Positions 120 to 62,222 of a stretch of 64,000 bases of DNA are shown piece after piece. How positions within the stretch are numbered: the stretch's first letter is position 1; every line of letters starts with the position of its first letter. This DNA is from Carcharhinus longimanus (Eukaryota): assembly GCA_030264375.1 (NCBI GenBank), contig JASCQW010000119.1, positions 11,069,896 to 11,133,895 of the forward strand. Reading direction: 5' to 3'. The notes below the pieces were generated by a model. The model was not told where the DNA came from and ran no database searches. It saw only the letters and a list, made by a program, of their open reading frames with translations. A program made the position numbers and the translations under genes.

Positions 120-146
120 AAGTGACGTTCAATCAGAAACTGAAGG
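120..146 (+). CDS. Microexon 1 (27 nt, phase 1-1) of unnamed coiled-coil gene; [E]VTFNQKLK
   Basis: ttctttgaacag|AAGTGACGTTCAATCAGAAACTGAAGG|gtgagt; fits the 27/36 alternation and heptad register. Confidence 0.85.
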
Positions 147-2235
147 GTGAGTGAAATAAATCATTTCGAAATCGGTTTTGTGTTTTTTTTGACTGCCCTT
201 TGAAATATTGTAAAAACTGGTTAAGCAAAAACATTACTTTGTAAATGAAGGGCATTCAGAAAAATGCAGTGCATAACCGTGAAACAATCATATATAGGAG
301 GACGATTAAGTAACGGCAGAAAGGCAGGATGAGTTTAGAAAACTGCCGGAAATGTGAAGATTATCACTTACGTTCCTGCAACTTTAATAGATGAAAATAT
401 AATAACTTGAACACTGAACCGACTCCGGACAATATTCTAAAATAAAATAACAATACGAATAAACCAGCTTTGCGGTTGAAAATTAATTGTGTGTCACTTA
501 TGGAGACAACGATGATTTCGGACATTCCTTTAAGCTTAACGAGGAATCAATTACTGCAGAATACTCACACTATCTTAACTGAGAGTAAGTATATTAGAGG
601 AAGTTAACACTTTAAAATTGGGGCAATTGCCTACATCCAAGCTGTTCCTATTTATTATTTCAAATGCGTTTATCATAATCATGTATATTTTTCAAATTCG
701 GCAATTTTTGAGCAGAGAATTGAATATAAATTTATGTTATTTTAGAAAACTTCGGCCAATCTAGCATCTCTTTTGAAAGATAAAAAGACTTAATCATTAA
801 GTGTACGATAAATAAGTACTTGTGCAGTTTGAACTCTTAAGGGGGACAATAGGTACAAATAGAATGTCCAGAGTTAGCTTACGGTGAGAAATATGCAACT
901 GGCCTGCTTCCGAAAAGGACTGCCGAAATACCTTTGATAAAGATGAATGTAAGAGATGAATATAGAAAGTCAAAAGTCATCAAATCTAAGACAAATCCTT
1001 GAAGAAGTAAGACGATTAATACCTTGTACAAAACATATTACAAAGTGAAATGTATAATGGTTCTACGACTTCGGCTGTGCTCAGTAGCAATTAACGGTTC
1101 AAAAAGCACAGTAAAGATTTACGTGTGCTGATAACACAAGTATTAATGCAGCAAAGGGAAAAGTTGGTAAATGAATAATATGATAAAATAGATAAATGGA
1201 GTAAGTGAGTAATCATAACTGTGAGAGTCAGCTTTCCAGGCAGGACAATGCTCAGTCATCCATATTGCATAATGATGACAGATGGGAGAAGTTCCAAATC
1301 GTAATATGCTCACACATTATCTTCGGGTGCCAAGAAAATTTGGAAATCGCTGGAAGGTTATTCTGAATGTTTAGAATATAAATGTGAAGGTAGATAGCTC
1401 TGTGTGTTGCTTCATTTCCCCCAATCAAGAAGTGATTTATTTCCCATTGGAAGATTGGACCATAGGTCACAATATGTTACCAGGCATTAAACGAACTGAG
1501 CGAGAGGAGATTTGCGTAGCCCGGCCATGCCTTATATGGAATACAAAATTTTAAGTGTAAATTCATTAGCTGTTTTGCTTGCAAAATAAGATTGATAGAG
1601 CGTATGTTTCTAAATTGTGACGAGTCACGAGAACAGTAAAAAAAATCCATAAAGTTATCATATTCAAAAAGCGAGTAGTAAAAACAAAACGTCTGCACTA
1701 ACAACTGACAGGAATGCGGAGTTGGGTCGCATTGCATGCTCAAATGGTCATTAATTAAGGTTAGGGGAGACTCCCCTGCTGGTAAATGCAAATTTCACTG
1801 ATGATGGCGAATTGACAAGTTCAGTTCAACATTCCAAAACATTCGATGCCGGTAAGCAACAACATGTGACCAAGATCAACACTTGATTTGATAAGTGGTA
1901 AAGGTGAACCCCGCCGCGCAAAATTCAGAAAAGACAATGTTGACAATAGTGAATCAAAACTGACATTCACATTCAGCAGCATTATCTTCGCTGACCCCCT
2001 CACCACCGTCAAACAGCCCCACCGCCCCCACCCCCTCCCCCCCGCCCCCCACCCTCCACCATACACACACGCACACACACATACACAACCCACACGGTTC
2101 CATCCACAACCCTGGCAGCACTTTAATTTGCATGTGGAGAGTGAGGTTTCATATTTCATGTTATATGCGTGAATGAATGCATCCGTATCATGCAACATTT
2201 ATACCACAGGGAGATTTCTCAATACCTTTCAGATA

Positions 2236-3080
2236 TAAGACCACAAGATATTCAGCACAATTAGGCCACTCGACCCATCGAGTCTGCTCCACCATTCAAT
2301 CATGGCTGATATTTTTCCCATCCTCATTCTGCTGCCTTATCTGCATAACCCCGATCCCCTTATTAATCAAGAACCTATCTATCCCTGTCTTAAAGACATT
2401 TAATCACCTGGCCTCCACAGCCTTCTGCGGCAGAGTTCCGCATATTCACCACTCTCTGGCTTAATAAATTTCTCATCATCTCTCATTTAAAGGATCGTCC
2501 CTTTAGTCTGAGGTTAGGCCATCAGGACCTTTTTTCTCCCTACCAGCGGAAGCATGCACTCCACGTCCACTCCATCCAGGCCTCGCATTATCTTGTAAGT
2601 TTCAATAAGATCCCCCCTCATCCTTCTAAATTCCAACGAGTACAGACCCAGAATCCTCAACCGTTCCTCATATGACAAACTCTTCATTCCAGGGATCCTT
2701 CTTCTAAACCTCCTCTGGGTCCTTTCCAAGGCCATCACATCCTTCCCAACATGTGGGGCCTAACTCGCAGTACTCCAAATGGGTTCTCACCTGAGCCTTA
2801 TACAGTTTTAGAAGTACATCATTGTTCTTCTATCCTAACCCTCCGATCATGAATGCGGCCATTGCACTTGCCTTCCTAACTGTTGGCTGAACTTGCACGT
2901 TAAGGTAAAAGGAATCTTGAATAAGGACACCCAAATCTCTTTGTGTGTCTGATTTCGTTAGCATTTCCCCATTTAGAAAATAGCCTGCGCTTCGATTCCT
3001 CCTTCCACAATGCATAACCTCACACTTTTCCACATTGTATTCCATCTGCCACTTATTTGCCCACTCTCCTAATCTGTCCA
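2236..3080 (-). mobile_element. CR1-clade LINE, 5'-truncated 3' portion
   Basis: Minus-strand ORF2 C-terminal motifs DRLGEWANKWQMEYNVEKCEVMH and SYEERLRILGLYSLEFRRMRGDLIETYKIM, plus the CR1-type 3' tail near 2236. Confidence 0.92.
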
Positions 3081-3635
3081 CATCCTTCAGTTGAACAGGA
3101 CGACGATGATGATGATGGTGGTGGTGTTGAGACTAGCATTTGATTTGGATTAAAGTGAGGGAGAGTTGTGCAGCATCAGCCTCTCTCTCTCTTTCCAAAT
3201 CCCATCTGGATCCACTGGCAAGACAAGAGTCAAGATGGCTGGAGATGGCACGAGGCGCAATGGATGACCAGGACATCTTCTGTACCTTGTCCTGCTCTTT
3301 GCGTTCCACAATGCTTGCACAGAACCGCCTTCCTGACCGTTGGATCTTCCATTCGTCCCGTCCGCTCAATCCATTGGAGTCTGTCTTCACATGCTGGGAT
3401 AGGCATCTCCCTGTCTCACCGAGGGTTGAGACCCGTCGGCTACCCTCACTTGGTTTAGCCAGCTTCTCGAAGCCGTTGCCCAGGGTGTGGCCGCTGTCAC
3501 ATGCAAACAGCTACGGGGAGCCACAGGTGAGAGCTGAGTGCCAGGTGGGGACAAAGGATGGACAAACAGTCCTGAAAAGGACGCTATATGTTCTCCCACC
3601 GGAATTACTACCTCTCCCTGACACCCAGTACACCC
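3081..3635 (-). mobile_element. Non-autonomous RTE-clade element (RTE-like 5' UTR joined to an RTE-like 3' end)
   Basis: Minus strand begins GGGTGTACTGGGTGTCAGGGAG, contains CTCACCTGTGGCTCC...GCGGCCACACCC...GGCTAAACCAAGTGAGGGTAGCCGAC and ends GTCCTGTTCAACTGAAGGA. Resembles RTE-derived elements as I recall them (not database-checked). Confidence 0.75.
3445..3635 (-). ncRNA. Putative HDV-like self-cleaving ribozyme at the 5' end of the RTE element
   Basis: Manual fold: P1 GGGUGU/ACACCC, P2 CUCAC/GUGAG, P3 GGC/GCC, P1.1 CC/GG, GGGCAAC junction, P4 GGCUUC-GA-GAAGCU, J4/2 GCUAA. Confidence 0.65.
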
Positions 3636-4592
3636 AAGCACCTAGGCGTTTAAGAAAGGCAGGCTCCTGTGAACATCACTATAAATAAAACCTCTCTTGC
3701 GAACCTGAAGGCATGCTGACTTAGAACCATTTAACAATTACGTCACTGCCCAGAAATGAATGTGTACTCCAGCTGGAACATATTAAACGAACTAGGCATT
3801 ACACGCTCTTAGTGTAATTTCTAACCATGTCGTGTAGTTTCATTCGAGGTCACTGAATCACAACAAAAGTAATATTTGCGAAAGTGATAAAAAAAAGGTT
3901 AATTGGTGCGCACGATTGCTCATAATTGTCATGGTTACCTCAGGTAATGCAAACATAATTCATTTGGCCCCATGTGATATCTACATTTGTTTGGTGTCTA
4001 AAAGCAATCGTGTGATGTACAAGAGCGGGGTTGTAAAGGGAAAACGAAGTTAATTCCACAATTTCGACAAGCCCTGCGATCATGTTCATTGTGTTGATAC
4101 AGATGTTGTCCAATGATTTTTGGGTTGCTACTGCAGTACATCTTGCAGATGGCACATACTGCTACCACTGTGTGCCAGGAGTGGAGCAATGTCGTAGGTG
4201 AAGCAGTAAGTGTTCAGGGAATGATGTTTTCTCCTAATAACGTGGAGTTATTTCAGCGTTGTGGGAGCTACGCTTATTTGGCAAATTGGATTTTTTTTGT
4301 ATATAATTTGTAAACCTTACCAGTCTCTCACCCGAGCTTGGGGCTGCAGACATAACATGGCCAAATAAAGGTAAAGTTCATATCATGCAGACATAAGGCT
4401 GTTTATGCTGAGAACTTGAGAAAATAATTTCCCTGAATCACAATGTGAGTTAAAGTCGGGTATCCCGATGTTTTTTACAGATTACCATTTTGGGTGGCAT
4501 GAATGCCCATTGTTCAAGGTCAACTCGCATCAAAATGCAATTCAAGGCTTGCAACATGTCAGCTCATGTAGTGTTTTACAAATTTGTTGCAG

Positions 4593-4628
4593 AGATAGAG
4601 ACTTTAAAGAAGAGTCTGCAAGACGTAG
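4593..4628 (+). CDS. Microexon 2 (36 nt); EIETLKKSLQDV
   Basis: aatttgttgcag|AGATAGAGACTTTAAAGAAGAGTCTGCAAGACGTAG|gtaaat. Confidence 0.85.
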
Positions 4629-5228
4629 GTAAATAGACATCAGTTTGTTATTCTGCACCCAAATGTAAATAGGGTATTTTTATTATTCACCACCGGCTGT
4701 GAAAATGAAGCGGCGATCGTTTGCCCTCATTAATTACTTAGTTTGACTCATCATTCGGCGATCATATTCAGGAAGTTACAATGGGTGATCAAGTACATGA
4801 GCATCATGGCTCATTGCTTATTTCATTCTTACGTCTGTTTCAATTCTAAATGTCGAGTGCAATGTAGCAAAAGTGATGGAGATTGGTTCATCTGTGATTT
4901 AAAAAAAAATCCCTTTAAGTGAATGGAAGCAAAAAAGGTGGTGAAAGGCATATTTTATGCAGAAAGATTTATTCAGTAGCTATAATTGGTTTTGGAGGCG
5001 ATTTCATCTACTTGACTCCATCGCTAAATGTTAGGAAACATTCCTTAGAGATTGCACTCGTGTTTCTTATTTCGGTCATATGTTACCTTGACCAATTTTA
5101 TTAACACGGCTCCAGTAATGTAGTTTTTTTTTTCAAAACGAAGTGTTTCTAAATTCTTTTTGCATACCTCAGTTATCTTCTTGTCCCCACTGGCATTAAT
5201 TGGCAATGTAAACCTTGCAACGTTTTAG

Positions 5229-5255
5229 ACAAAGAGCTAACTCAGAAAGAGAAAG
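5229..5255 (+). CDS. Microexon 3 (27 nt); DKELTQKEK
   Basis: caacgttttag|ACAAAGAGCTAACTCAGAAAGAGAAAG|gtaagt (consensus donor). Confidence 0.88.
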
Positions 5256-5899
5256 GTAAGTATGCAAGAAACACCTACTTGAAAGTATTGAAACTCGAAA
5301 AAAATGAACGATAAAATATCGTTCCTGTTGTTTGTAAAATTGGTTACACTTTTCAAATCATCAACATCTTATAAACGTGTGAATACATTTTTAGGACAAG
5401 CATGTGCCATGTTGGCAACTTCACACTTAACTACCATGATCCTTAATCTGTCTGTCCTGCATGGATGGAGGTAAGATCTTTGGAAAAAACATTTATTGAT
5501 AAGTATATTGATGTATTCGTGTATAATTTTGTATTCCTGTGTGTGTGCGTGTGTGTGTGTGTGTGTTATAACCTTGCAGGATCCCTTTGGGAGTGGGTAT
5601 TTCTGCCGTATTTCCCTGACTTAAAGCAGGCTGAGTGTAATTGAGTTTCAGTCTTTAGTCTTGAATAAATGAGTCTCAGTAAATTTCAGGCAAATATGCT
5701 CGACAAAGGTTGTAACCTTGTGTATAACATTAATTGCAGGAAATTCCTTTAGAAAATCAATTTTAAATGTTCTGGGCTGTCTTGTATGCACTCCCTTTAG
5801 GTCTTCATTGAATATATTAACTTTGCTCCTCCAAATGTGTCTGCAAAGGAACCAATGGAGTGAACGTTACAACGAAATTGGAAATGAGCCAGGAATAAC

Positions 5900-6270
5900 A
5901 TTAGAACCATAGAACCACAGAACATTGCAGCACAGAAACAGGCCTTTTGGCCCTTCTTGGCTGTGCCGAACCATTTTTCTGCCTAGTGCCACTGACTTGC
6001 ACCTGGACCATATTCCACCACACCCGTCTCATCCATGTACCTGCCCAATGTTAAAAGTGAGCCCGCATTCACCACTTCATCTGGCAGCTCATTCCACACT
6101 CTCCCACCACTCTCTGTGTGAAGAACCCCGTCCCCCCCCCCCACACACACACACACACCCCGCAATAATCCCGTTAAACGTTTCGCCCTTGATCCTTAAC
6201 CCGTGCCCTCTAGTTTTTCTTTTCTACCCTAACCTCAATGGAAAAAGCCTGCTTGCATTCTATCTATTTG
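5900..6270 (-). mobile_element. CR1 LINE 3' end fragment with internal C/(CA)n tract
   Basis: tagaaccatagaaccacagaaca tail; minus translation RVWNELPDEVVNAG. Confidence 0.8.
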
Positions 6271-6559
6271 TACCTAACAACAATGTAGGAAAATATTATA
6301 TTGGAGGATGTTAGAATGCAAATCCTACTTTTTAAGGATGAATCTTGGTGGTGAACTGAAAGGCGGGCTTGGCAGACGTCGCCATACATGCACATGACAG
6401 CCTCAATATCCTAAAAGGCACGTGGCTCTGAAGTTCATCAAGATTTTCCCATTTGTGCACATCGGCACGCAAATATTTATGTTTCCAAGACTCACGGGAT
6501 GAAAGGTTATGAGCAAGACAGAAGTCAGCCCAGATTAGAAACAGGAGATACCATAGAAT

Positions 6560-7070
6560 TTCAAATGCACACAATGCACTAGAGGCCCTTCGGCAAGTCG
6601 GGTCTGCATAGACAGGCGAGAACCATCTGGCCAACTCGCCTGATACCAATTACCAGCGATTCGCCATAACCTTGAATGTTATGACGTGCCAAATAGTTCT
6701 CCAGGTACCTTTTAAATTGGGAAGAAACCCGCCTCCACCGGCCTCACGAACAGCATATTATAAACCGCCTCCACCCATTCGATCAAAAGGTTTTCCTCAG
6801 TCCCCTCCTCCTTTGACCTTCTGGCTCTTGCATTGAACTTGCGTCCCCTCGTGACAACGTTCAGCAGAAAGGAAAACTGCTCCATACGCACGCTATCATG
6901 TTCCTCATAGCCTTGCGTAGTTCGATGATGACGCACCCCCTGTCCTATCTGCTCCAACGAAAATAAACCATGATTTTGCAACCTCCCTTCGGAACAAGAA
7001 TGCTCCGTTTAAGGTAGCATTCTGGAAACGCTCCTCTGCAGCCCAATACAGTATCATCCTTCCCATGATA
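6560..7070 (-). mobile_element. Old CR1 3' fragment
   Basis: Degenerate GLFSLEQ...VVTRGRKF on the minus strand. Confidence 0.6.
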
Positions 7071-7099
7071 CATATCAAAGCAGATAATTACAATAGATC

Positions 7100-7850
7100 C
7101 TTCCTGTAATATCCCAAAAATGCAGCATAAGTTAGAATTGGCCGACAGCTTCAGTTTTTAGATGTCCAGATCATCAACAACCTATCCTGGTCACCCTCAT
7201 GCCGAGACTCCCCTTAAGAATGCCCACTAATGCTTCCACTTGCTCAGAAGGCAAAGGAATTGGGCATGTCAACTGAGACTCTCACCAACCTTTTCAGATA
7301 TAGCATAGAATACATNNNNNNNNNNNNNNNNNNNNNNNNNNNNNNNNNNNNNNNNNNNNNNNNNNNNNNNNNNNNNNNNNNNNNNNNNNNNNNNNNNNNN
7401 NNNNNNNNNNNNNNNACTTGGTGTGGCTCCTTTTCTACCCAAGACCTCAATAAACTACAAGATGTCATGAATATAACCCAATCCATCCCCGAAACCAGCT
7501 TCCTATCCATTCATCTTGCCGACATTTCCCGCAGCCTTAGAAAATGAGGCAGCATAATCCCGGATCCCACGTACCCTTCCACCTTCTCCCGTCGGGAAAA
7601 AGATATAGAAATCTGAGGTCGGGTATCAAAAGACTCAAGAACAGGTTGTTTCCTGTTGTCCTGAGACTGTTGAATGGACCTACCACGCACTACGTTGATC
7701 TTTCTCGAAAATTTAACTACAACTCTACATTCTGCAATCTCTCCTTTTCTTCTCTATGAACGCTATGTTTTGTCTATATAGTGCGCAAGAAACAATACTT
7801 TTAACTGCATACTGATACAGATGACAATAATAAATCAAATCAAATTAATT
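7100..7850 (+). mobile_element. Rex1/Babar-like (L2-related) LINE 3' portion spanning an N gap
   Basis: GMSTETLTNLFRYSIE...WCGSFSTQDLNKLQDV...LLPSGKRYRNL...RLKNRLFPVVLRLLN; ends aataataaatcaaatcaaat. Confidence 0.8.
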
Positions 7851-7869
7851 CAAAGAAACATAAGTGATG

Positions 7870-9660
7870 TGAGCATCGTCAGGGGACATTCCCATGTGAG
7901 GCTTTGGCAAATACAGTGGTAAAAGTGGAAGTAGTGCCCAGTGCTAATGTGCTTACTGCCGAAGAAGCAGATCGACGCTAGCAATTTGTGTGGTGGATAA
8001 GCGTGGTGCAAGGGCCACTATAGAGTAGTAAATGCAAATGCCATAGGAATCGACCATCAGCCTTCATTCCTCCAGTAAGATGAAGCTTCAGGGAAGGACA
8101 GATTTTTCTCAACGGACAGCTGTAATCAGTGTCAAAGCCATAACGACATGCTCGAGAAGGACGGGGTGGCGCAAGAGAAGGTCACAAAGGGATGCACAAT
8201 AAGCTCATTAAATGAGGAAGACTCAGTCCAAGCAATTAAGCCTACAGATCGCAGCTCATTTATCTAATAGTGTGAGAATAGCAGTGTGTTTGAAGGTCGT
8301 CCCTGTACAGAGAGGTCATCACAGACTTTATGCTGGAAAGGACGGCGAGTGGGGCAAGCATGTGACAATCATTTTCTGCAACCTGAATTTTATCGTGGTG
8401 TTGAATTTTTATTGCTCATGATTACTCCAGCAATTCATCGGAGATTCGTCCGTGATCTCATTTCTGGTTGTTTATCAGTGCATGTTGGTGACCGCCATTG
8501 TTATCCTCAAAGGATTGAACAACATGTTAGATTCGATATTGAGACATTTATGTTTAATGTGCTCAAGGATCGAGTTTCAACTCTGCTTTGCCACAAAATA
8601 CGGTGAAAACGATTTCACATTTGCAGCCAACAAACTCCCACTAAGCAGAGAAACAGATCAATTGCACGGACATTCCGCCATTCAATATGCAATGGCCAGC
8701 TATTCAAGGAGGCTGCACGGTTAGATGGAAGCAACAACATTAGGGTTTCCCGAATGGTTTTCCCTCTGTACACTTCAAGGATGGGTCCTGCATGACAGCG
8801 ATCGACATATTGACGAATATCCTAACGAAGACTTTAGGAACTCATGCACTGCTGCAGCAGGGCGGTGAAACGTCTCTCACGGCGCAATGAGTTCAACAGT
8901 CCAGCAGTTACAGCACTTTGACTGACAAATATTTCTTGGGAAGTTTTATACCAAACTCCAAAATGTTTGTCCTGACTTGCGCTCTTCTCACAGAGGGGAG
9001 AAAACATCCGAAAACTTTTCTGAGAGTTTGAATATTTTGCTGACTATGTGGGGTTTGACCTATGCATTTGTATTTGACAGTATTCAGCGACAGGCCGAGT
9101 CAACTGAAGGCAAAATTGAAGAGATTGAGAGTAGTTTGCATCTCAGATGCAGGGCTGACAACATTACAATCACTTGTAATATCTAGGCCATGTATGATGT
9201 TCCATGGCTAGTTTAGTTTGGTACGGAGGCGAGTGAGGGTAGAGGTTTCCTATCTAGACAGTGCACAATACACCAGTGGGCAATTGATATTTGATGAGAG
9301 GTGTCGTCAACGTCGGGTGCATTGTGAATACAGTCACACAGCCTTTCTTGAGACAGCTGTAGATGTCGAAGTTGTCAGTTTCAAATCTTCGGAGCAAAAT
9401 CCACAGGATCTCATGAACTATTCATTTTCCCATGCTTTGGCAAGGATGAACTGATCCTAATATTTTCTCCAGATATGTTCCCTGCATTCCCATGACCACC
9501 AAGCACCATTGGGGGATAATCAGCTGGAAAGTATAAAGGGAGACAGTGTTTCTGGGATAATTGTCTCAGCCACATGAAGTAAACTATTGAGAAGAATCCA
9601 ATCAGTGAATTCCGTATGAACCGGACAAAAAGAAATAGATATGTTTTCGGGCATGATTTA
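7870..9660 (+). mobile_element. Heavily decayed hAT-family transposase
   Basis: Collinear degenerate motifs across frameshifts: CAYC...KCH zinc finger (~7950-8045), ...GVA-x-xGH (~8160-8187), CIPMTT...LSH dimerisation-like segment (~9485-9575), EF...FG terminus (~9608-9652). Confidence 0.55.
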
Positions 9661-10402
9661 TCTCTCTTCGTGAACATAGGACACAAATTATATTCCAGAA
9701 AGTGCACAAGGGACGGTATATTGTTACTTCCAAATCGATAGCATGTGCACAGGGAATACTGACGTGAGCACATATTTATCACATTCGAAGGCCATAACTG
9801 CACGAACGTTGTGACCAGCAACGTTGTTGGATTTATCAGTACGATTGTTTCCATAACCGTCACGTAGATCATACGTGGAAACGGTCACAGCGTGCTGGTA
9901 ATAGCCCTGGACTGTATGAGCAATAGCATCACGTTTAACGAGATGTTAGGAACATCCGTTACGGTGTTGATTCTTAAGCAGAACTGGCTCCCATTCTGCC
10001 CATGGTCTTTCCGTGGGCTGATTGCTTAATTTTATTTTCATGTCACGGTGAACAGCATATTTCTGACTCTCTCGTGAGTTTTCTTCCATCGCCAAAACGC
10101 CCACTTTAACTCCTTCAATTGTTTTTCTGTATCAACCTTGAGCTGTTGCACCGCTAGCTGTTTCACTTGTAGTATCCGTTTTTCTCTCCCAAGCTACCTG
10201 TTTTGGTTCCAGAATCGTACACTTTTCAGCTTGTTTTACTAGCCGTGGTACCAACTATGATCGAATGCAGTAAGGGAAACATTTGAGTCTAACATAGTTG
10301 ATTTTACTTGATCCCGCGAATATTTGATCCTGAAATTCAACTGAATATTTGAATGTATTCCAAATTGTTGATGTGTTGCATATGGATAGAATTCATAGCG
10401 TC

Positions 10403-10722
10403 CATAGAATCCCTGCAGTGCAAAAGGAGGTAATTCATCTCATTGAGTCTGCACCAACAGAAATCCCACCCCAAGCCTTATCCCCACAACCCTACATATT
10501 TACCCCGCTAGTCCATCTAACCTGCACATCCTCGGACATCAAGGGACAATTTAGCATGGCCATTCAACCTAATACGCACATCTTTGTACCATGGGAACAC
10601 CAAGAGGAAACCCACGCAGACACGGGGAGAATGTGCAAACAGACAATGACACTATTCGGGAATCAACCCCAGGTTCCAGGAATTATGAGGCAACGGTAAC
10701 AGCCATTGCGCCACCGTGCCGT
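10403..10722 (-). mobile_element. HE1-like V-SINE
   Basis: ggaaacccacgcagacacggggagaatgtgcaaac (V-domain, reverse) and tRNA-like head ending gccaccgtgccgtc. Confidence 0.9.
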
Positions 10723-45322: not shown

Positions 45323-45349
45323 AAGAACAGCTGCAAATCAAAACAAAGG
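45323..45349 (+). CDS. Microexon 11 (27 nt); EEQLQIKTK
   Basis: ttgctatctttag|AAGAACAGCTGCAAATCAAAACAAAGG|gtaagg. Confidence 0.87.
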
Positions 45350-49375: not shown

Positions 49376-49379
49376 GGGA

Positions 49380-50407: not shown

Positions 50408-51099
50408 GTACAAGAGTGATAATGCACTGTTGCCAGGGACTCAAATCCCTGACACCAGTGCCACCTAGTGGAATTGAAACTCAATTCATAAAGATTAGAT
50501 TTCAAACCTAGTCTCAGTAATGCAGACCCTGAAACTCTCATCGATGGTCGTTAAATAAAATCTTTTTGTTCACAATGTCTTTTATGGAAGGAAATTTCTC
50601 GTCCATATCTGGTATGGCCTACTTGCGAATGTAGAGAAAGAATAACGTGGTTGACTCGCCACTGTCTCAGAAATGACACAAAAATCGCGTCATTCAACGG
50701 CCACCTGGGATGGAAAACTCCCTTCACATTGGGACGAAACGTTTCTTTTGCAAAAAAGCTGGTAATACAGTCAACATATTTCGGAATGAAGCAAAGACCT
50801 TTTTAAGAAACCGAAATATGTTCTATCTTATTCTTTCAAGTTATGTTATTAGTAAGCCTCATTATGTTTTATGTTCCTTAGCAGCAAACGCTTAGCAGGG
50901 TCTGGTTCTTGTAAAGGTGTTGAAAGAATTTTCAGCATTGGTTTTCAGCATTACTTTGGGTACGTGCTCAGAAGATAAACAAGTAGAAGGGAATACCGAA
51001 ATGGTTCAAGGGATATGTAGTCTGGTTCGAACAATCGCTAGAGTATAATTTATTTCGAAGAAAAAGAAACAGGTCGTATTCTACCAACGTTATACATGC

Positions 51100-51935
51100 T
51101 ACTTAGCTGTGTGGAAGGGTCAACTGTTTGAAGGGCACAGAGAGTCTGAACAGACATATAACTAAGCGGGCGTCAGGATGACAGATGGAGTACAATATGG
51201 AGAAGTACACATGGAAAACAGATATTATCAAAGGTGCGAAACTTGTAATTTCTGGTGTTCAAAAAGACTTTAGAGTACAACGAATGCTGAACGTAAGAGC
51301 ATCAATCAATCCAGAATTCATAGAATGTGCTGGCTTCCACTGCAAGGGTTTGGGGTACAACAAAAAAGAAGGCATGCGACAATTGTTCAGGGGAGTCTAC
51401 TGGTGCAGCTCTAGATTCCACATATAAGAAAGATATAGTTGCACTGGTGACTGCAAATGGAAGTTCAGTAAATTGTACTCCAAGCACGGAAGTGCTGTCC
51501 TATGCTAAGAGGTTGAGTAAATTTATCATTTATTCTCTGGAGTTTGGAAGAATGTAAGGCTATTGTAAACTATAAAATTGTCAAAGAAGTTGATACGGAG
51601 GAGGGTGAGAGATCGTTTCCGCGAGTAGGGCAACTTAAAAGACAGGGAGAAATCTCAGGAAAACGGGATAGCCATATTATTCAGAGATGAGATAGAAATT
51701 AATGCATTCAAATTGCAGTGAATCTTCGGAATTTATTAACCCAAAGTGTTGCGGATGCTCCATGGTTGGGGTATTTTAACGCTGGGATAGAGGTTTGTTT
51801 TTAGTATTCTTGGAATTGAGGAATATAGGGAGCAGGTTGTAAAATGTGGTTGGTGCCCAACGTTAGCCATGAGCATGTTGAATAACTGAGCAACATCGAC
51901 GGGGGCATGCTCCGGTTTCTTGTGTTCTTATGTGT
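51100..51935 (+). mobile_element. Old CR1 3' portion
   Basis: cagatggagtacaatatggagaag (QMEYNMEK), LSYAKRLSKFIIYSLEFGRM; tail tgtgttcttatgtg. Confidence 0.8.
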
Positions 51936-51990
51936 TTTAATTGTTCAATTGAACAAATGAATTAATTCTTATTATTCCTGTTTCTTTTAG

Positions 51991-52017
51991 AATCTAAGTT
52001 GAGTAGCAAAATTAAAG
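51991..52017 (+). CDS. Microexon 13 (27 nt); ESKLSSKIK
   Basis: ttcctgtttcttttag|AATCTAAGTTGAGTAGCAAAATTAAAG|gtacta. Confidence 0.82.
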
Positions 52018-53639
52018 GTACTAGAGTTGATATATATTGATATCATAAAATGTGTCACTATTTAATGTGTGTGTATAACAATTCTATCCCCGTTACGAAA
52101 CCAGTATCACGTAAAAAAACACACTTTTTGTGCCATAGAAATTCATCTCTCAACGTGCCGAAGATTTGTCCCTGTGTTGCAGGTCGCCACCTGGGTGGAG
52201 AATGGTTCCCCGCCGCCCCTCTCACCTCTTACTTCTGACCATATGTCTACACGTCCTGTCTTTCATGCAATTCAATTAAGTCACCTAGTAGCCTTCTCTA
52301 CACCAAAGGAAGTACAAGCCTCTCAGTGTTCCGCGTCACTGAGGTTTTTCTCATTACAGTGAACAAGCCTGTTAACGTCATCTGCACCATTTTTTGTTTT
52401 TTCGTAGTGTGGTGACCGGGACGGCACAGAGTGCTGCAGCTCCGGGCAAATATCTGATTGACTCATTTCAGCATAACTTTGCAGCCATTCTCTTCTATAT
52501 TTTGTTTAGTTTAATTATATTGGTCGGATATCTTCTCGAGCAATTTGTCTCCCTGTCCAGCGAGCCGCAAGAATCTGTGCAACAACACTTTATGGTTCCG
52601 ATTTTCCTCTCCATTACGGTATCTAAAGCTTTATGGTATACTATACCATATATATGCCATGGTATTCTACCTTTCTTTCTTGTATTCCTTTCTCAACCTC
52701 AACTGAAAACATTGCATACAGGAACTATCACCTGCCGTCGCCTTTATTGTTCGAACCACAACTCAGGAGTAGGAATGAAGTCACGCACCTCCCTGTTAAT
52801 CTGCCATTTCAGCCTTCGTTCTTGAAGATCTTTCAATTAAGTACATATTATTGAATTCTTAGTTTATTTCCCCTTCTCTGTTCCCTCTGTCTTACAAAAA
52901 AGGTATTCCCTTCCTATTGGAAGCCCGCAATCGGAGGTTTAAAGGTAAGTGGTCACATGGCAATTCCCTGGAATGTGAACTTCCGTCTGGAAAAAGAAAC
53001 ATGCCATTTAAATTGTTAATATCGGACGGTTCCGCCAGGGTTGCACCAATAGTTCATCCGAAAAAAGTGACAAGAATCAAAAACTCTACTCGTTTCCGGC
53101 AAAGAATTACAAAATTTCAGCCTCACCCCTGTACGGGACTTCAACCACATCCCCGACAATCCAACCGTTTTCTCCACTATCCACCCCCTTAAGATATCGC
53201 CCCCGCATGCTTGATCCTTTCACAACGTGTCCCATCAAACGTAATTGTGGAAAGCAAAACTCGTCGAGTATCGGGTTACATAGTGACGTGGAGAGGAAGA
53301 TTGGCTAGCTGACACTGCAAGGCATAAATTGGTCATTTTATGGCTGACAGAAAATGTAACGACTGGTATGCCAAATGGATCAATGCTGGGGTCCCAACTA
53401 TTCAACATATGGATGAAGTGACTGAGCTGCTGCAGGTTGACTAAGTAGTAAAAGCTGGACAGTTTACGTTTGTATCTGCTGGAGCTCAGAAGAGCAAGAC
53501 ACAATTTGATCGAAAGAGATGAGGCCTTGCGGGGCAAAGCAGGGTGATGTGGTGAGGATGTTTCTCCTTGTGGAGAATCTAGAAAGAAAGATCACAGATT
53601 TAGAATAAGGAGTTTCCCACTTCAGGCAGAGATTTGGAA

Positions 53640-54490
53640 GATATTGTTTTTGCTGATGACACAAAGGTTGGAGGTGTTGTGGACAGTGTGGAGGGATGTC
53701 AGAAGTTGCAGCGAGACATAGATAGGATGCAAGACTGGGCGGAGAAGTGGCAGATGGACTTCAANNNNNNNNNNNNNNNNNNNNNNNNNNNNNNNNNNNN
53801 NNNNNNNNNNNNNNNNNNNNNNNNNNNNNNNNNNNNNNNNNNNNNNNNNNNNNNNNNNNNNNNNNNNNNNNNNNNNNNNNNNNNNNNNNNNNNNNNNNNN
53901 NNNNNNNNNNNNNNNNNNNNNNNNNNNNNNNNNNNNNNNNNNNNNNNNNNNNNNNNNNNNNNNNNNNNNNNNNNNNNNNNNNNNNNNNNNNNNNNNNNNN
54001 NNNNNNNNNNNNNNNNNNNNNNNTTGAAAGGGTGCAGAGGAGATTTACAAGGATGTTGCCTGGATTGGGTGGCATGTCTTATGAGGATAGGTTGAGAGAG
54101 TTCGGTCTTTTCTCCTTGGAGAGAAGAAGGATGAGAGGTGACCTGATAGAAGTGCATAAGATGTAGAGAGGTATTGATTGGGTGGATTCTCAGAGGCTTT
54201 TTCCCAGGGCTGAAATGGCTTCCACAAGAGGACACTGGTTTAGGGTGCTGGGGAGTAGGTACAGAGGAGACGGCGGGGATAAGTTTTCGCTCAGAGGGTG
54301 CTGGGTGCGTGGAATCGGCTGCCGGTGGTGGTGGTGGAGATGGATTCGATAGAGTCTTTTAAGAGACTTCTGGATGAGTACATGGGACTTAGCAGTATTG
54401 AGGGTTATAGGTAAGCCTAGTAGGTAGGGATATGATCAATGCAACTTGTGGGCCGAAGGAACTGTTTGTGCTGTAGTTTTTCTATGTTCT
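53640..54490 (+). mobile_element. CR1 LINE from RT catalytic motif to 3' tail, with N gap; appears nested in an older CR1
   Basis: FADDTKVGGVVDSVEGCQKLQRDIDRMQDWAEKWQMDF; ERVQRRFTRMLPGLGGMSYEDRL; tail tctatgttctat. Confidence 0.93.
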
Positions 54491-55086
54491 ATTATTTCAG
54501 AAAGACAACGTCCTTGAAGCTTTTCACGGCAGAAATAGATAATGATCAGCAGGGGTGGGATGTTCTTTTGTAATAGGCTGGAATGTGAAGTAGAGGTTAA
54601 AATTGGATCGTATGCAATGGTGGAGTAGATTTAATGTCGCGAGTGGACCAGCACTCTGAATTCGTAAGCTTTAATGCCATATTTAATATGAATGGCATTT
54701 AAATAAGGTTTATATATTGTGTTCAATTCGCCAATGAATTTTACTACTCTGTACAACATGTATGCAATGAAAGATTTTATTTTAGAAATCTCATTTTCTG
54801 CAGGTCTTATGTAATTGTTTGGAAAATCCTGATCAGACTTTTCAACAAATAAACTCAATTAAGATCGGATAACTCTTCAATTAGTTAAAACAATGACATT
54901 AAAGGTGAAATCATCAATCTCTATTAGCATTTGAAATAATTTACCAGCGTCTCCCAATCATACAGCCTGCAAAGTTTATTTTGATTAAAATTACATTTTA
55001 ATTTTTTAAAATGATGTTTTGTCAACAAACCTGACATTGTCCTGTTATGTAATGTCTTATTTAGCTGAAAGAATATGACAGACAGA

Positions 55087-55346
55087 TAAGAACATAAGAA
55101 ATAGGAGCAGGACTAGGCCATCTAGCCCTTCGAGCCTGCCCCGCCATTCAATAAGATCATGGNNNNNNNNNNNNNNNNNNNNNNNNNNNNNNNNNNNNNN
55201 NNNNNNNNNNNNNNNNNNNNNNNNNNNNNNNNNNNNNNNNNNNNNNNNNNNNNNNNNNNNNNGTCAAACACGACTTCCCCTTAACGAATCCGTGCTGCGT
55301 CTGCTCGATCAAACCATTCTTTTCTAGGTGCCTCGCTATATCTTCT
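55087..55346 (-). mobile_element. Young CR1 with 3' tail and RT fragment either side of a 100-N gap
   Basis: Tail ataagaacataagaaatagg; KEDIARHLEKNGLIEQTQHGFVKGKSCL. Confidence 0.88.
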
Positions 55347-55845
55347 TTGAGGACGGGTCTAGCATTCTCAGATACTGTGCAGTGTCTGAGAGCCAGAACC
55401 ACAACAGTTGGCCGTTTTCACCTTAACCACACTGCGTTTTGGAATATCTCTGCAGATGATGGTGAGGAGAAGTCCTCCTTTAATCAAAATTCTTACTGTG
55501 GCGATCACGTTAGGAAGGTTTCCGTTTGATTAGAGGTTAGAATAGCCATCGCCCACCGTCACTGTAAATTGCAGCCTCAAATAGATACAACTCATTACTC
55601 GTTATGTGTACATCATTCAGCATCCTCCACGCACCCGTTTTCTCGGAACCAAAATACAGTTGTGCCGCAATGCTGCGGATAGTCTTCTAAAATGACATAG
55701 CTGGTGCATTTTTTTAAAAGACCTGTGAACATGCTTCTCGCAACAACTCCATTGATTGGCTTATATATCTTCAAACTGAGTTATTAGCTGGATGCCGCAG
55801 ATTAATTAGCGGCATCCAGGATCAACTTCTCTACTTTCTTTCTAG

Positions 55846-55881
55846 AAATCCAAAAAATGAAAGAAGCTTTCTTCGAATTTG
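55846..55881 (+). CDS. Microexon 14 (36 nt); EIQKMKEAFFEF
   Basis: cttctctactttctttctag|AAATCCAAAAAATGAAAGAAGCTTTCTTCGAATTTG|gtaagt. Confidence 0.9.
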
Positions 55882-57836
55882 GTAAGTGAAAAAAAATATG
55901 CTTCACCACTTAGAATTACACTGATTTGCTGATGCGTATATGTAAATGCAATACCAAGTTGCTTCACTCAGATGCGATCGAATCATCTGCTCGTAATCCT
56001 CATCGCCTGAACGCCTCAGGATGTTCCTGGGAATTAATAGATTCCTATCGGCCGTCCAACAAATTTTAAGACTCACCTGTCTCTTACGTTGGAGCTGTTG
56101 GGGATCTTCCATTAATGTCTGCATCGGCTCTTGTAAGTTTATTAATGTTTCTTTTTTTACATCCACAGGCGATTCGGTCCGCCTTGTTGGCCAACAAGGG
56201 GCCTACACGCGGTGGGTGGTGCGAGGGCTGCTCTTGGATGTTGCTTCGAGAGTTGCCTAGTGCTTCACGTCGTTANNNNNNNNNNNNNNNNNNNNNNNNN
56301 NNNNNNNNNNNNNNNNNNNNNNNNNNNNNNNNNNNNNNNNNNNNNNNNNNNNNNNNNNNNNNNNNNNNNNNNNNNNNNNNNNNNNNNNNNNNNNNNNNNN
56401 NNNNNNNNNNNNNNNNNNNNNNNNNNNNNNNNNNNNNNNNNNNNNNNNNNNNNNNNNNNNNNNNNNNNNNNNNNNNNNNNNNNNNNNNNNNNNNNNNNNN
56501 NNNNNNNNNNNNNNNNNNNNNNNNNNNNNNNNNNNNNNNNNNNNNNNNNNNNNNNNNNNNNNNNNNNNNNNNNNNNNNNNNNNNNNNNNNNNNNNNNNNN
56601 NNNNNNNNNNNNNNNNNNNNNNNNNNNNNNNNNNNNNNNNNNNNNNNNNNNNNNNNNNNNNNNNNNNNNNNNNNNNNNNNNNNNNNNNNNNNNNNNNNNN
56701 NNNNNNNNNNNNNNNNNNNNNNNNNNNNNNNNNNNNNNNNNNNNNNNNNNNNNNNNNNNNNNNNNNNNNNNNNNNNNNNNNNNNNNNNNNNNNNNNNNNN
56801 NNNNNNNNNNNNNNNNNNNNNNNNNNNNNNNNNNNNNNNNNNNNNNNNNNNNNNNNNNNNNNNNNNNNNNNNNNNNNNNNNNNNNNNNNNNNNNNNNNNN
56901 NNNNNNNNNNNNNNNNNNNNNNNNNNNNNNNNNNNNNNNNNNNNNNNNNNNNNNNNNNNNNNNNNNNNNNNNNNNNNNNNNNNNNNNNNNNNNNNNNNNN
57001 NNNNNNNNNNNNNNNNNNNNNNNNNNNNNNNNNNNNNNNNNNNNNNNNNNNNNNNNNNNNNNNNNNNNNNNNNNNNNNNNNNNNNNNNNNNNNNNNNNNN
57101 NNNNNNNNNNNNNNNNNNNNNNNNNNNNNNNNNNNNNNNNNNNNNNNNNNNNNNNNNNNNNNNNNNNNNNNNNNNNNNNNNNNNNNNNNNNNNCCCCCCC
57201 TCCCCCCCCCCCACCCTCCGCCCCCTTCCCCCTCCCCAATACCCCCACAATTTCTGGTGTAATCTAATAAACCTTCTCTGATTTTTTTATCATCTATTCA
57301 TATATTTTTATAAAATGAGGAGGCCAGTACTGTACATTGTACCCCGGATGCAGTCTCTGCAATGCCCTGTTTAAGCGACGCATAACCAACTCTACTCTTA
57401 CATCTATTTCCCTTGCAAAGAAAAATAATATTCCTGTTTATCACACCGGCATACCAACATTTTGTAATTCATGCATTTGAATACACAGAAATGCCGCTGC
57501 ATATCATGGTGAACTCTGCACCATATAGATAATATGCAGGGGCAAGTGCTACTGCGTAAACGGTGATATATAAAATATGTTTTTATGAAATGGTTGCTGT
57601 GGGATTCATCCATCCTTTTGAAAGTTTCTGTTACAACTTGATTCCATTTAAGTATTGACGCCGTCGTGGAATCTTCATTTTTCTTGAGCAGGCTGGTGCT
57701 GCTTGCTCATTTTTCCAGACTCAAGCATGGCAAATGATTGGTATTTGCATTAAAAGAAAAGAGTCTTTAACATTCAAATTAATTCCATTGCTAATAGTGT
57801 CTAAATTATGAATGATTCAAACCCACATGCCATCAG

Positions 57837-57863
57837 ACACGAAAGTGGAAAGCAAGGAGAAAG
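57837..57863 (+). CDS. Microexon 15 (27 nt); DTKVESKEK
   Basis: cccacatgccatcag|ACACGAAAGTGGAAAGCAAGGAGAAAG|gtaagg; weak pyrimidine tract, strong donor. Confidence 0.8.
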
Positions 57864-58174
57864 GTAAGGTTGCATTTGTTGAGAACTGGGTCGCTGCTCT
57901 GCCTTTTGTTATTTTTTTCCAATAGATGTGAATAGTATTCACATTTTAACTTGCTGCAAAACCACATAAAGTCGTTTCACAAAACAAGGTACAGCGTATT
58001 TGGAGGTTCTCTGATATCAGTTCCAGTCATTGTGGCACATGCCAGACAGCTAAGATGGTGCCTAACCATCTATAAAGCTACCAGAGGCATGTGTAGCTGA
58101 CAAATAAGTTGTGTGTGCCTGCCATTCTACATAACTATCAATTAGATAACTACATAGATGCAGCAGGCAGAAAG

Positions 58175-58300
58175 ACTACCTGTCTACCTGTCTGTCTATT
58201 TGCTTATCCAATTATCTATCTATCTATCTATCTGTTTGTCTACCTAGTTGCCACCTAGTAGTCTATCTATTTATCTGGTTGATAATTTACTGACTGTCTG
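58175..58300. repeat. Degenerate (CTAT)n/(CTGT)n microsatellite
   Basis: tatctatctatctatctatctgtttgtctacc. Confidence 0.85.
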
Positions 58301-60223
58301 TCTAATTCTTCTTTTGAATAGAACTGTATAAGTGGGTCATTTATTCAAAAATATTTAATTGATGCCCGGGAGTATTAAAATAGAGTGTGCGCTGACAATT
58401 TTGGCGCACCTATTCGAGACATATACATTTTTTTTTCATTTCTCTTGAAGACAAACATGCGGCAGACTCAAACACCGTACTTTGAAGAGTCTCAGTCTAT
58501 CAGAATATAAGTTAGAACTGGGGAGAAATAGGCAGCATTAACTCTCCCAACAGCAATTCTGGTTGGTAAAGCACCTGGACTGTTAATCTGGAACCATTAA
58601 CTAATCAACGTGAGAAATGAATGCAAATTCCACTATGGATATGGGAAAGTTAAATTCAGCCAGTACGGCAAACATGAAATCGGTACTTAGCTGATTTGAT
58701 TTTTGCAATGAAACTACCAGATATTGCAAATGGAAAGGAAAAGGTCTGAATTATTGATATCTTTTAGTTAAGCGGGATATGGATATAAACTGGAGGAAGG
58801 GTGGAGATTCAGTGCAGAATGATACCAATATGCTGCAGCAGATGCGGTTATTGTTACTGCCCATGCTAGAAAAGGCCTAAAATTGGGAAGGGATTAGAAT
58901 CATAGTTTTCAACCATCTGCATTAGTGACTTGCAGGCAATAAATTGCGAGTGCCAATTTTACCCTCCCAGCAATGCTCTCAAGATTCTACTTCAATGATG
59001 GCTTACAACAGTCCTCAAAAATACATCTAACTTTATGTTTGTTTTGATCCATTCATCCATGACCGCTGTGCCGTTGACGTGGACCTGTTGCTGCTCAAAC
59101 ATTCTATCAATGTTAAAACAACAAACATATATGTTTCATTCATTCCATGATCTCTTTGTTCGTTGTTCGTGCAATGCCCATAACGGGCTAACATCTTCTC
59201 ATGAGCAATCCGAAGTTAATAGATAATTCTCACCATAACACTGTACCACTGTGTTGCCCTCCTAAGACGATACCTAAGTCACATGTAACCAAGCATTCGA
59301 ACATCTGCCCTAAGATTTGCTTTGGTTCTTTGTCTCCGGTTTGCATCTCAAAGACATATTTGAGAAGGCTTGGGACTTTCGATAATGTTAAAGGTGTTCT
59401 CTAAGCAAACACTGTTGTTGATTGTGTTGATATTAGCTGAAAACTGAGTATGAGTCCCTTACGTGGTTTCTGAGCAGTGACACAGTGTTACAATAGATTG
59501 AAGATTATTTTCCAATTATTCACGAATACCTTCATGAATTCCATCAGGGCGATGTTTAATGCTGCAATGAAAGCGAATAATAATTGCCACCAGTCATACA
59601 AATTTGATTGCTTCTAACTTGAATACGGAAAGTCGGGACAAAAATATGCTTATTTCTACCATATAAGGAAGAAATGTTTGCCGTGAGCACTAGGAAGTAG
59701 GAACTGCTGCTAATAGATCGGCTAGAGAAAGGAACTCTCTCAAAACTGTGTGCAATACTCTTTGTATGTTAAAATGTACAAACAAGTTAATACAAAATTT
59801 GGGTTCGTTAACGTGGACGGGGCATTTTGGTCAGGAATACCAGTGGAAACCAAATGTATTCAGTAAATCATTAGCAAATGACCTGCGAGTCTCACCGCTA
59901 ACATCCCTTTTGTCCTCCCCACCCCCATCATCCCTCCCAGTCCACATACACGCACATAGGCGTGCACACACAGAAAACTGTTGCAATTGTCGTTGTGTTG
60001 CTAACCTTTGGACCGGTTTAATAATCTTTAACTCACATTTCACGAAACCGAATCATGCAAAAGAAAATGGTGAAATGGCGAGCATGCTGCTGATCCAAGA
60101 AGATAAACGGCATATTCGGCATTTCCCACCTCATGCTGTTTTGCTACTTTGACTGAAAAATAGTCCGATTTCTCCACGTTAACAACATAACCCATCTTGT
60201 TTCTTATCACCTTCTCACTCAAG

Positions 60224-60259
60224 AAGTGGGAAAGATTCGATATCAGCTCGTGGATTGCG
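60224..60259 (+). CDS. Microexon 16 (36 nt); EVGKIRYQLVDC
   Basis: tttcttatcaccttctcactcaag|AAGTGGGAAAGATTCGATATCAGCTCGTGGATTGCG|gtaagt; located by searching for the 36-nt exon expected between exons 15 and 17. Confidence 0.85.
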
Positions 60260-60994
60260 GTAAGTACAAAGTATTGAATTAGCTTTTCTTGATAACACCG
60301 CTACGCAGTTCACTATTCTCCATGTTGGAAGACACGCATGCAGGAGAAGGTTATTGCCAGATAAATGTCTCCTGCAGATCCCTTGGCAATTTTGCTACTT
60401 TTTCTTTTACGGGATGGTCACAATATGAGATAAAGGCGATGTCCACAGTGCCACATTTTCAAATCCCCCCAGCTGCCATGACGAGATACCCAGTTTGGTC
60501 ATTAGATCGGTTGTCTCACTTTCTGTGTTATTTTTCCGTGGTACTGTTGGATGGGCGGTTGCTGGCCGATGTGTCGATTCATGAACCACCAAACTATATT
60601 GAATCTCATCATGGCCAAGTCGGGTTTCTGAAATAGCTATCCAATCAAGTCCCCATTCCTCCCTTCCTTCCGGACATCCTGGATTTTTTTGCCCCCTTCT
60701 AATAATGAGCTACCTTTTGAAATCACATTTCAACTTGCATCCAGCAATAGTTCAGGCAGCGTATTGAAGTTCATAGGAACTTAGAAAGCCCGTCTTATTA
60801 CCATTGTTATTCCGCCCCAGTTATCATGTAGCTTTGTTTCCTGGTTACTTACCGTTCTATTGGTGGATCGCTTTGAGTCTACTTACCCTATATTACACCG
60901 ACATCCCTTCCAATTCAAATACTACATATTTACTTCCTTTGTTCGTTGGAGAACGATCTCAGCTTTTATCGTGTCACTCAATATCTCAACTTCC

Positions 60995-61520
60995 ATAGAA
61001 TCCATAGAGTGCAGACGGAAGCGACTCGGCCCATCGATCCTGTCCCGACTGTCCGAAAAAGCCTCCTACCCATGTCCACAGTCCTGTTGTATCCCATAAG
61101 GCTGTGCATTTGCCATGCCTAATCCACCTAACCGACACATCGCTACGCACTAAGGGACAACTGAGCATGACATGTCCGGCTCACCTGCATGTCATCGGAC
61201 ACTAATGGACAATATAGCATGGTCAATCCATATTATCGGCACATACTTGAACAATAAGGGGTAATTTAGTATGGCCAATTCACCTAACCTGCATATCGTT
61301 GGACACTAATGGACAATACTGCATGGTCAATCCACTTAATCTGCTCATCACTGGACACTAAGAGATAAATTAGCATGGCCAATTCATCTAAGCCGTATAT
61401 CGGTGGATTGCAGGGGACAATGGCGCACCGAAAGGAAGACGGCAGACACAGGCAGAACGTGGAAAAGCCGCACAGAGTTATCCGAGGCCCGAATCGAACC
61501 CAGGGCCCTGACACTGTGAT
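60995..61520 (-). mobile_element. HE1-like SINE with several tandem copies of a ~55-60 bp internal unit
   Basis: Repeated acacta(a)tggacaat...gcatggtcaatcca units between the tail (catagaatccatagag) and the V-domain. Confidence 0.8.
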
Positions 61521-62195
61521 CAAACTGTTAACAATTCCTCACGCCTGATATATCTCTGTTTAGTCACTGATTATTTTGCTACAAAGTGTGTCATATGCAA
61601 GATGCAGATAAGCAACTGCAACAGATTCAATGGGAGACAAATTTCAGCCGCAAAGTCTGCATTCCAGGCTGACAAGAGCAGAAATCACTTTGGGAAACCG
61701 TGATTGATAATTTCTTTCAAACCCCAAACAATCCTGATTTGTGACTATAACCACTCTGTCTTCAAAGTCGCTCGATTAATGATTGAAATTTCACTTCAAA
61801 GGGCACTATGAAGGCACCAATACCAAAACTCTGCAGCTGCTCATGAAGGTGACTTGACAAACGACAGCTGTGGATAACCTCATAATGTCTGCCTTGTCAG
61901 CTTACATCAATGAGACCTTTCCAAGCGTGTTTTGTTTCCTTTGAGGCAGCAGTAAGTGCGAATTGAGTAATTGATAAAGTAATAGATTTCTTTCTGAAGT
62001 TGGAACATGGTTAATGTATATACCAAATAAAAACATTTGCATCTTGGACCCACACATTGTTTAGAATTAATATAATCGGACATCTCATATTGAATAAAAG
62101 AACTAGGTGAGAATTTTTGGGGTAAAATAAATCTCATTTAAATTAATTGCAACTTTATCACGAATTGTTTGCTTTCTAATTAATGTTGTAATCAG

Positions 62196-62222
62196 AACAA
62201 CGCCTGAACAACAAAGGAAAAG
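62196..62222 (+). CDS. Microexon 17 (27 nt); EQRLNNKGK
   Basis: taatgttgtaatcag|AACAACGCCTGAACAACAAAGGAAAAG|gtaaag. Confidence 0.82.

Follow-up and report, generated by a model that had tools for sequence, protein, structure and literature searches.

A shark gene of more than 60 exons, assembled from 27- and 36-nt microexons and probably encoding a coiled-coil rod with a B30.2 head

A 64,000-nucleotide (nt) stretch of the oceanic whitetip shark genome (Carcharhinus longimanus, GCA_030264375.1, an assembly of 2.68 Gb), located on contig JASCQW010000119.1 (C119) at 11069896-11133895 of the + strand and referred to here as the window, is the middle of a gene with more than 60 exons. This gene is best explained as a functional multi-exon member of a cartilaginous-fish family, which encodes a long coiled-coil rod with a single C-terminal B30.2 head. 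The explanation as a whole is given a probability of about 0.5, and the gene and its architecture, taken by themselves, are very probable. An array of small exons, the frame that they share, a period of 3.5 residues, a B30.2 exon of the same phase and strand, and a family of related genes are all directly observed. The first-pass annotation had presented a gene of 17 exons; these turn out to be an internal portion of a much larger gene, one of at least eight paralogues, and the entire window (1..64000, +) is gene interior, with module exons on both sides and the B30.2 exon beyond.

All 17 exons withstood a direct check of their coordinates: each is on the + strand, preceded by AG and followed by GT, with G as terminal base. 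Those of 27 nt lie, with their scores in brackets, at 120..146 (14.8), 5229..5255 (20.5), 20253..20279 (19.0), 29163..29189 (16.7), 35822..35848 (21.6), 45323..45349 (15.8), 51991..52017 (15.8, with a weak donor), 57837..57863 (17.7) and 62196..62222 (16.4). They are interleaved with exons of 36 nt at 4593..4628 (21.0), 15699..15734 (14.0), 25040..25075 (20.0), 30329..30364 (14.0), 44015..44050 (15.5), 48420..48455 (19.7), 55846..55881 (16.5) and 60224..60259 (9.1, the lowest of the 17). Joined together, they amount to 531 nt and read without a stop in the phase-1 frame, as against 16 and 12 stops in the two others, and the junction residue is Glu or Asp in 15 of 16 cases, the remaining one being the Gly of exon 12 (48420..48455). 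A further 36-nt exon at 11568..11603 (+) had been missed, although it scores 21.3, higher than most of the 17. A weaker 27-nt candidate at 12126..12152 (+), which would restore the alternation, scores 3.5, a level reached on the control strand by 6 candidates per 304 kb. With both added, the frame stays open and the 3.5-residue periodicity becomes stronger. The window holds 18 exons, and probably 19 with 12126..12152, so that the alternation "without exception" of the earlier list arose because one or two exons had been left out of it.

Two scores were used to examine how far such exons stand out from the background. A generic splice model, which was not trained on the 17 exons, rates as strong 7 of the 196 AG..GT-bounded 36-mers on the + strand of the window and 1 of 221 on the - strand, and no more than three on either strand for every other length from 12 to 90 nt. 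By splice score alone the 27-nt class is not enriched (2/188 strong), its acceptors being weaker than those of the 36-nt class, and neither is the 21-nt class (1/199). The second score combines splice signals with the encoded peptide and was trained on the 17 exons, with leave-one-out evaluation. Over the window and 200 kb downstream (264 kb), it passes 52 of 1022 stop-free candidates on the + strand, that is, the 17 training exons and 35 new ones, and only 1 of 1073 on the - strand, taken as control. When 40 kb upstream are included (304 kb), scores of at least 10 are reached by 55 of 1171 candidates on the + strand versus 1 of 1240 on the - strand. The stop-free state is built into the scan filter, and therefore it has no evidential value for the exons found by the scan. 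The exon array is not a product of chance. Splice-like words assembled by accident, or the remains of a dead gene, would fit with the fact that no transcript of the gene has been seen, but they are hardly credible in view of the 55 to 1 strand bias, the intact B30.2 frame, the splice sites kept intact on old, diverged exons and the recurrence of the same layout at six paralogues.

In the wider region, the working list, which leaves aside the tail exons and any candidate with a score below about 7, comprises 59 module exons over 240 kb (1863 nt or 621 codons; 29 of 27 nt and 30 of 36 nt), 9 of them upstream (40 kb), 18 in the window and 32 downstream (140 kb), with a median intron of 3.5 kb. 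Alternation of the two lengths holds as the rule, in 49 of 58 adjacent pairs; assembly gaps lie inside 8 of the 9 exceptions, and three 36-36 intervals contain weak 27-nt candidates. One 36-nt module exon, at position 119834 of the extended window (L011:5834-5869), has a GC donor, its other splice signals being strong.

Beyond the last module pair there are linker candidates of 24, 24, 27 and 27 nt, all in phase 1. A search of the flanks for a terminal domain, proposed in the first-pass annotation with B30.2 among its guesses, leads to a B30.2 (PRY/SPRY) exon at C119:11288335-11288854 (+), 155 kb downstream of the window. It has a phase-1 acceptor and an intact frame of 173 codons that ends in a stop, and it matches SPRY with an E value of 1.9e-15. 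This exon starts 2.5 kb past the last 27-nt exon, in the same phase and on the same strand, and that last 27-nt exon looks, in an alignment judged by eye, like the nine residues that precede B30.2 in the skate, chimaera and catshark relatives. At the other end, matches to a degenerate pattern for the 27-nt exon extend the array upstream at 11.014, 10.968 and possibly 10.773 Mb of C119, and the gene therefore spans at least 320 kb, perhaps 516 kb; the nearest preceding family B30.2 exon ends at 10.68 Mb. A 10-kb piece at C119:10.764 Mb contains the match at 10.773 Mb without a strong 27- or 36-nt neighbour. Some 20 kb past the B30.2 exon, a Myb/SANT-like domain exon (PF13873, E 1.4e-13; L023:7705-8010, +) was noticed, which belongs either to the next gene or to a Harbinger-derived element.

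The protein sequence encoded by each 27+36-nt pair is a unit of 21 residues. Six core positions had been proposed for it, and positions 2, 5, 9 and 16 are indeed hydrophobic in 90-100% of cases; position 12 is so only in part (73%, often a small residue), and position 19 does not conform, since 23 of 29 exons have Lys there and only 7% a hydrophobic residue. The hydrophobicity period peaks at 3.5 residues with the 17 exons and more strongly with 19, in agreement with a continuous heptad. Mean identity between module exons of the array is 46-49%, with conservation falling from codon position 2 to 1 to 3, and the intron flanks are not clearly alike (over 1597 pairs, the local score has a median of 18 and a maximum of 34; the comparison does not include shuffled controls). 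This combination of diverged exons, codon pattern and unlike flanks points to an old duplication of the exon pair under coding constraint, and the earlier view of a poorly annotated cartilaginous-fish coiled-coil gene that grew in this way is borne out.

The current model proposes that each 27+36-nt pair would add three heptads, with unit positions 2, 9 and 16 as a and 5, 12 and 19 as d. Ile or Leu at a together with Leu at d would favour a parallel two-stranded coil, which would be loosened by the Lys at every third d. Coiled coils rise by 0.15 nm per residue; at this rate the 621 codons would make the rod some 90 nm long or more. Every exon is of phase 1-1 and a multiple of three, so that any of them can be skipped in frame; the skipping of a pair would change the length of the rod while keeping its register, and that of a single exon would shift the register. 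The rod would bring two B30.2 heads together in a dimer, at a distance from the N-terminus that splicing could adjust. If it faces the cytoplasm, the protein may do the work of a butyrophilin or BG inner tail, serving as scaffold or sensor, with a protein or a small ligand bound by its head.

The gene is not alone in the genome. Its six closest B30.2 paralogues, 35-40% identical to its B30.2 exon, lie at 6.33 Mb (-), 8.53 Mb (+), 9.02 Mb (+), 9.09 Mb (-) and 10.68 Mb (+) of C119 and at 94.27 Mb (-) of another scaffold, C81, the last without a 27-nt pattern match upstream. A seventh, at 91.99 Mb (-) of C81, has motifs in common with the basking-shark relative, as judged by eye; with a profile score of 123.5 it is inside the range of non-family matches, and it is outside the tree sample described below. 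Microexon-shaped matches are found upstream, on the same strand, in 6 of these 7 paralogues, and the family therefore has at least eight genes within this genome, the present one included. Genome-wide, the pattern for the 27-nt exon gives 99 matches versus 50 for the reversed pattern used as control; with a looser version, 100 of 281 matches were listed. All 37 matches on C119 fall at 6.37-11.21 Mb of a 70-Mb scaffold; 16 of them are training exons, and the other 21, without exception, are upstream of a family B30.2 exon and on its strand. Six family genes are thus found within about 5 Mb (C119 6.3-11.3 Mb) in mixed orientation, with microexon-shaped matches over 170-620 kb upstream of each B30.2 exon, and they sit on a different scaffold from the IgC/B30.2-rich cluster of C81. 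On C81, 15 of 17 matches form an array at 92,239,280-94,190,655 (-), upstream of the 91.99-Mb B30.2 exon and within an IgC/TRIM-rich region; no B30.2 match lies between the two among the candidates scored, which are part of the total. If this is a single gene, its length would be about 2.2 Mb. Lone family-like 27-nt matches were also seen outside the arrays, at C81:90,981,766 (-) and on the small contigs C5022, C25733, C25833 and C14074, which may represent gap filling or second haplotypes.

Relatives are present in catshark (two genes), electric ray, little skate, basking shark and chimaera (two genes), besides unnamed records, and all named database members come from cartilaginous fishes. 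The names assigned to them automatically are TRIM-like (TRIM39-, TRIM58- or TRIM69-), A33-like, myosin-like or nuclear-pore-anchor-like. One chimaera gene codes for 1697-1722 residues, and its protein finds the window gene as its top match in the shark genome, by a small margin (88.1 versus 87.0 bits). Two models of this long gene differ by 13 indels, 9 of which are of 9 or 12 residues, and a difference of 9 residues also separates isoform pairs of catshark, electric ray and chimaera (one pair differs by 6, and one also by 7); the annotated relatives thus appear to have exons of the same sizes as here. When the C-terminal region of the long chimaera protein was used to look for further long relatives, just the two models of that gene were recovered among 1505 candidates. 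A single-sequence fold of the skate homologue (mean predicted local distance difference test score 45, rod helices 75-84) was too poor for further use. Several side observations concern these proteins. In the long chimaera relative (P0110), about 15 eight-residue repeats rich in Thr, Asp and Pro break the coiled coil at residues about 900-1100. Look-alikes of the chimaera protein in the Atlas include a chordate cluster with 137 members, SPRY proteins of 1579 residues (0.92), and others of 1277 and 1802 residues, all of them to be taken as leads. An unrelated match of 632 residues (P0134) starts with a membrane segment, continues with a repeated coiled coil that has many N-glycosylation sequons, and ends in B30.2, a layout that would place B30.2 outside the cell, although the model may be a fusion.

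The position of the family relative to other B30.2 proteins was examined in a quick tree of 64 domains, in which the comparison sequences were drawn from matches to the family and form an unbalanced sample. The 15 family sequences stand on one side of a long branch (SH-like approximate likelihood ratio test 100), whereas 8 butyrophilin-type and 36 TRIM sequences are mixed on the opposite side, so the family is not nested among the sampled butyrophilin B30.2 domains. A TRIM protein with a hugely lengthened coiled coil, whose RING and B-box exon would lie far upstream, accounts for the automatic TRIM and A33 names, for the fact that most single-sequence matches are TRIMs, and for the order of coiled coil followed by PRY/SPRY, which is that of C-IV TRIMs. 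It is nonetheless very unlikely, as the family occupies a separate branch and all seven homologues scanned have SPRY, with or without a weak PRY, and neither RING, B-box nor Ig. At C119 6-11.3 Mb, no B-box was found among 103 matches (150 of 277 candidates scored); the genome was not searched for RING.

Another proposal is that of a true butyrophilin or BG gene, in which exons for a leader, IgV (perhaps also IgC) and a transmembrane segment would lie far upstream and be absent from the database models, the array being an extreme cytoplasmic heptad tail before B30.2. The exon grammar is common to BG genes, with their split-codon 21-nt heptad exons (PMC5938342, in part), and butyrophilins likewise have short heptad exons and then B30.2 (PMC6790196, PMC8813856, in part). 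The family profile also finds BTN3A1 B30.2 as its best match among solved structures (118.5 bits versus 98.7 for TRIM21), and the hydrophobic starts described below could be cut-off transmembrane exons. This origin is unlikely, however, given the long branch, the lack of Ig domains in the seven homologues, and the lack of butyrophilin-type IgC at C119 6-11.3 Mb, where all 57 candidates were scored; in the same interval, no V-set was found among 150 of 928 candidates. When the genome was queried with a butyrophilin, all matches were to B30.2 (88 of 245 candidates scored), which is no test of IgV. Five V-set matches and one IgC match were seen at C119 1.1-3.7 Mb, at least 2.7 Mb from the nearest family gene. 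On the features examined, the gene has a C-terminal B30.2 exon preceded by short phase-1 exons as in butyrophilins, though far more of them and of 27/36 nt, and it differs from chicken BG both in having B30.2 and in having 27/36-nt exons in place of a long tail of 21-nt ones. It would resemble a BG or butyrophilin tail in its working yet, on these features, is a member of neither.

At the N-terminus, the skate and long chimaera models open with a hydrophobic 9-mer at residue 4 (hydropathy 3.3 and 2.8), and their best N-terminal 19-mers reach 1.48 and 1.59, the other models being lower. No 19-mer of transmembrane type is encoded in the 59 module exons, as judged by hydropathy. In the chimaera model a basic cluster directly follows the hydrophobic start, which suggests a membrane anchor whose C-terminal side is in the cytoplasm. 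In butyrophilins, B30.2 lies in the cytosol (PMC6790196, in part). The favoured arrangement, at somewhat below even odds, is a rod and head that face the cytoplasm without Ig, RING or B-box, either free or anchored by the short hydrophobic N-terminus.

The same hydrophobic starts may be read as a cleaved signal peptide, encoded by an exon spliced onto the module exons, which would make the rod an extracellular stalk with a B30.2 head and the protein a soluble recognition or fibre-forming molecule. Such a build is like that of collectins, angiopoietins and olfactomedins. No 19-mer of the skate and chimaera models exceeds 1.6 anywhere, their 13th residue is Gly or Ala, as would be expected of a phase-1 leader exon, and a leader-to-rod splice would be in frame because all exons are phase 1. 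Four other family models, however, have no leader, the basic cluster and the usual cytosolic location of B30.2 argue for the inside of the cell, and a scan for a leader exon (40 kb upstream and the 10 kb at C119:10.764 Mb) gave 2 unconvincing matches, against 10 control matches per 264 kb. Secretion is doubtful. With the same low confidence, the family may be regarded as an undescribed one of secreted or membrane-tethered rods, composed of a leader, a microexon coiled coil that may reach about 1500 residues, and B30.2 as the head. It would be older than the shark-chimaera split, its genes, of 0.3 to possibly 2 Mb, would be mostly invisible to annotation, and splicing would set the length and register of the rod exon by exon.

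Several points weigh against the explanation of the gene as a coiled-coil rod with a B30.2 head facing the cytoplasm. Its 5' end is beyond the region covered, the exon chain is a prediction, and the span may contain more than one gene. No spliced transcript of the gene has been seen, and the sequencing runs listed for window positions 55500-62500 (6 records from 3 studies) include no RNA. The absence of V-set and B-box near the gene is weak evidence, since their candidates were scored in part. Two genes (skate and chimaera) of the six examined (seven models) have the hydrophobic start, although the four models without it may be incomplete, and it is short and fits a cleaved signal peptide equally well. 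The B30.2 exon has no close orthologue in the database, the best single-domain matches being 42-48% identical. Finally, a profile of the repeat unit matches 5 of 7 family proteins and none of 19 controls (TRIM, butyrophilin and other), with just 1-2 matches per protein; two of the five proteins come from a single gene, and up to 2 matches also arise when the longest is shuffled.

The comparison with BG and butyrophilins drawn at the outset is the right one. The CD23 stalk and the necks of C-type lectins have a 21-residue, three-heptad unit, each encoded by one 63-nt exon, and a lectin head; the shark gene shares the 21-residue unit, yet uses two exons for each and has no lectin domain that could be seen, and a C-type-lectin neck, considered at one point, was dropped once the B30.2 exon was found. 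Guinea-pig enterophilins combine a long leucine zipper (about 30 heptads) with B30.2 and lack Ig and RING, and their architecture has the same domain order as that predicted for the shark protein, although enterophilins are mammalian. Enterophilin-1 interacts with SNX1 (PMC13749957, in part). Like chicken BG, or zipper protein, the shark gene has a long coiled-coil tail made from many phase-1 mini-exons; BG tails contain 27-38 split-codon exons per gene, mostly of 21 nt (few of 18 or 24), they are varied by splicing and copy number, and BG is a tandem multigene family (PMC5938342, PMC8813856, in part). Unlike BG, which has one heptad per 21-nt exon, IgV and a transmembrane segment and, in the available portions of the same papers, no B30.2, the shark gene has three heptads per 27+36-nt pair, kilobase-long introns and a B30.2 exon, and no Ig has been found in it. 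Butyrophilins (BTN/BTNL) also place short heptad exons before a terminal B30.2 exon, but they have few heptads (PMC5938342, PMC8813856, PMC6790196, in part), as against 90 or more here, where IgV-IgC-transmembrane exons were not found and B30.2 stands on its own long branch. Butyrophilins exist in cartilaginous fishes, with a varying number of heptads (PMC12841164, in part). C-IV TRIMs share the coiled coil followed by PRY/SPRY (PMC8813856, in part), and the shark family differs from them in its homologues without RING or B-box, its microexon-built rod and its separate branch.

As for the remainder of the window, it has no match in Rfam, and its long open reading frames (ORFs) have, by eye, the appearance of retroelement remnants, gaps or chance. 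ORF fragments at 30887-31420 (-), 40204-40569 (+) and 53604-54166 (+) resemble the 3' ends of long interspersed nuclear elements (CR1/L2) by eye, the first of them having no Pfam match, and 61183-61407 is a degenerate tandem repeat of 52/104 nt. An intron of the gene holds a reverse-transcriptase remnant (L012:6918-8029, +), Penelope-like by eye, with RVT_1 below the cut-off.

The family seems undescribed: no published description was found in titles and abstract openings, a scope outside which most subscription journals and supplements fall, and the available parts of PMC6795676, PMC11788884 and PMC13749957 contain nothing on this shark family. BG and butyrophilin genes already display this exon grammar, and what is new here is the 27+36-nt, three-heptad unit. 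If the secreted form were true, it would represent a new class of extracellular proteins in which a stalk carries B30.2, for recognition or for building fibres. Shark annotation has a gap here, which takes in eight genes or more (six within 5 Mb of a single scaffold) and relatives misleadingly named as TRIM, myosin or nuclear-pore proteins. Dozens of in-frame 27/36-nt exons amid kilobase introns also provide a natural test case for microexon recognition and for protein length tuned by splicing. Whether separate B30.2 domains cooperate with BG tails is called unclear in the available part of PMC8813856. Here a single chain unites a BG-like microexon tail with a butyrophilin-type B30.2, on a different repeat unit and in the oldest living lineage of jawed vertebrates, and therefore the family bears on the origin and shuffling of heptad-exon and B30.2 modules.

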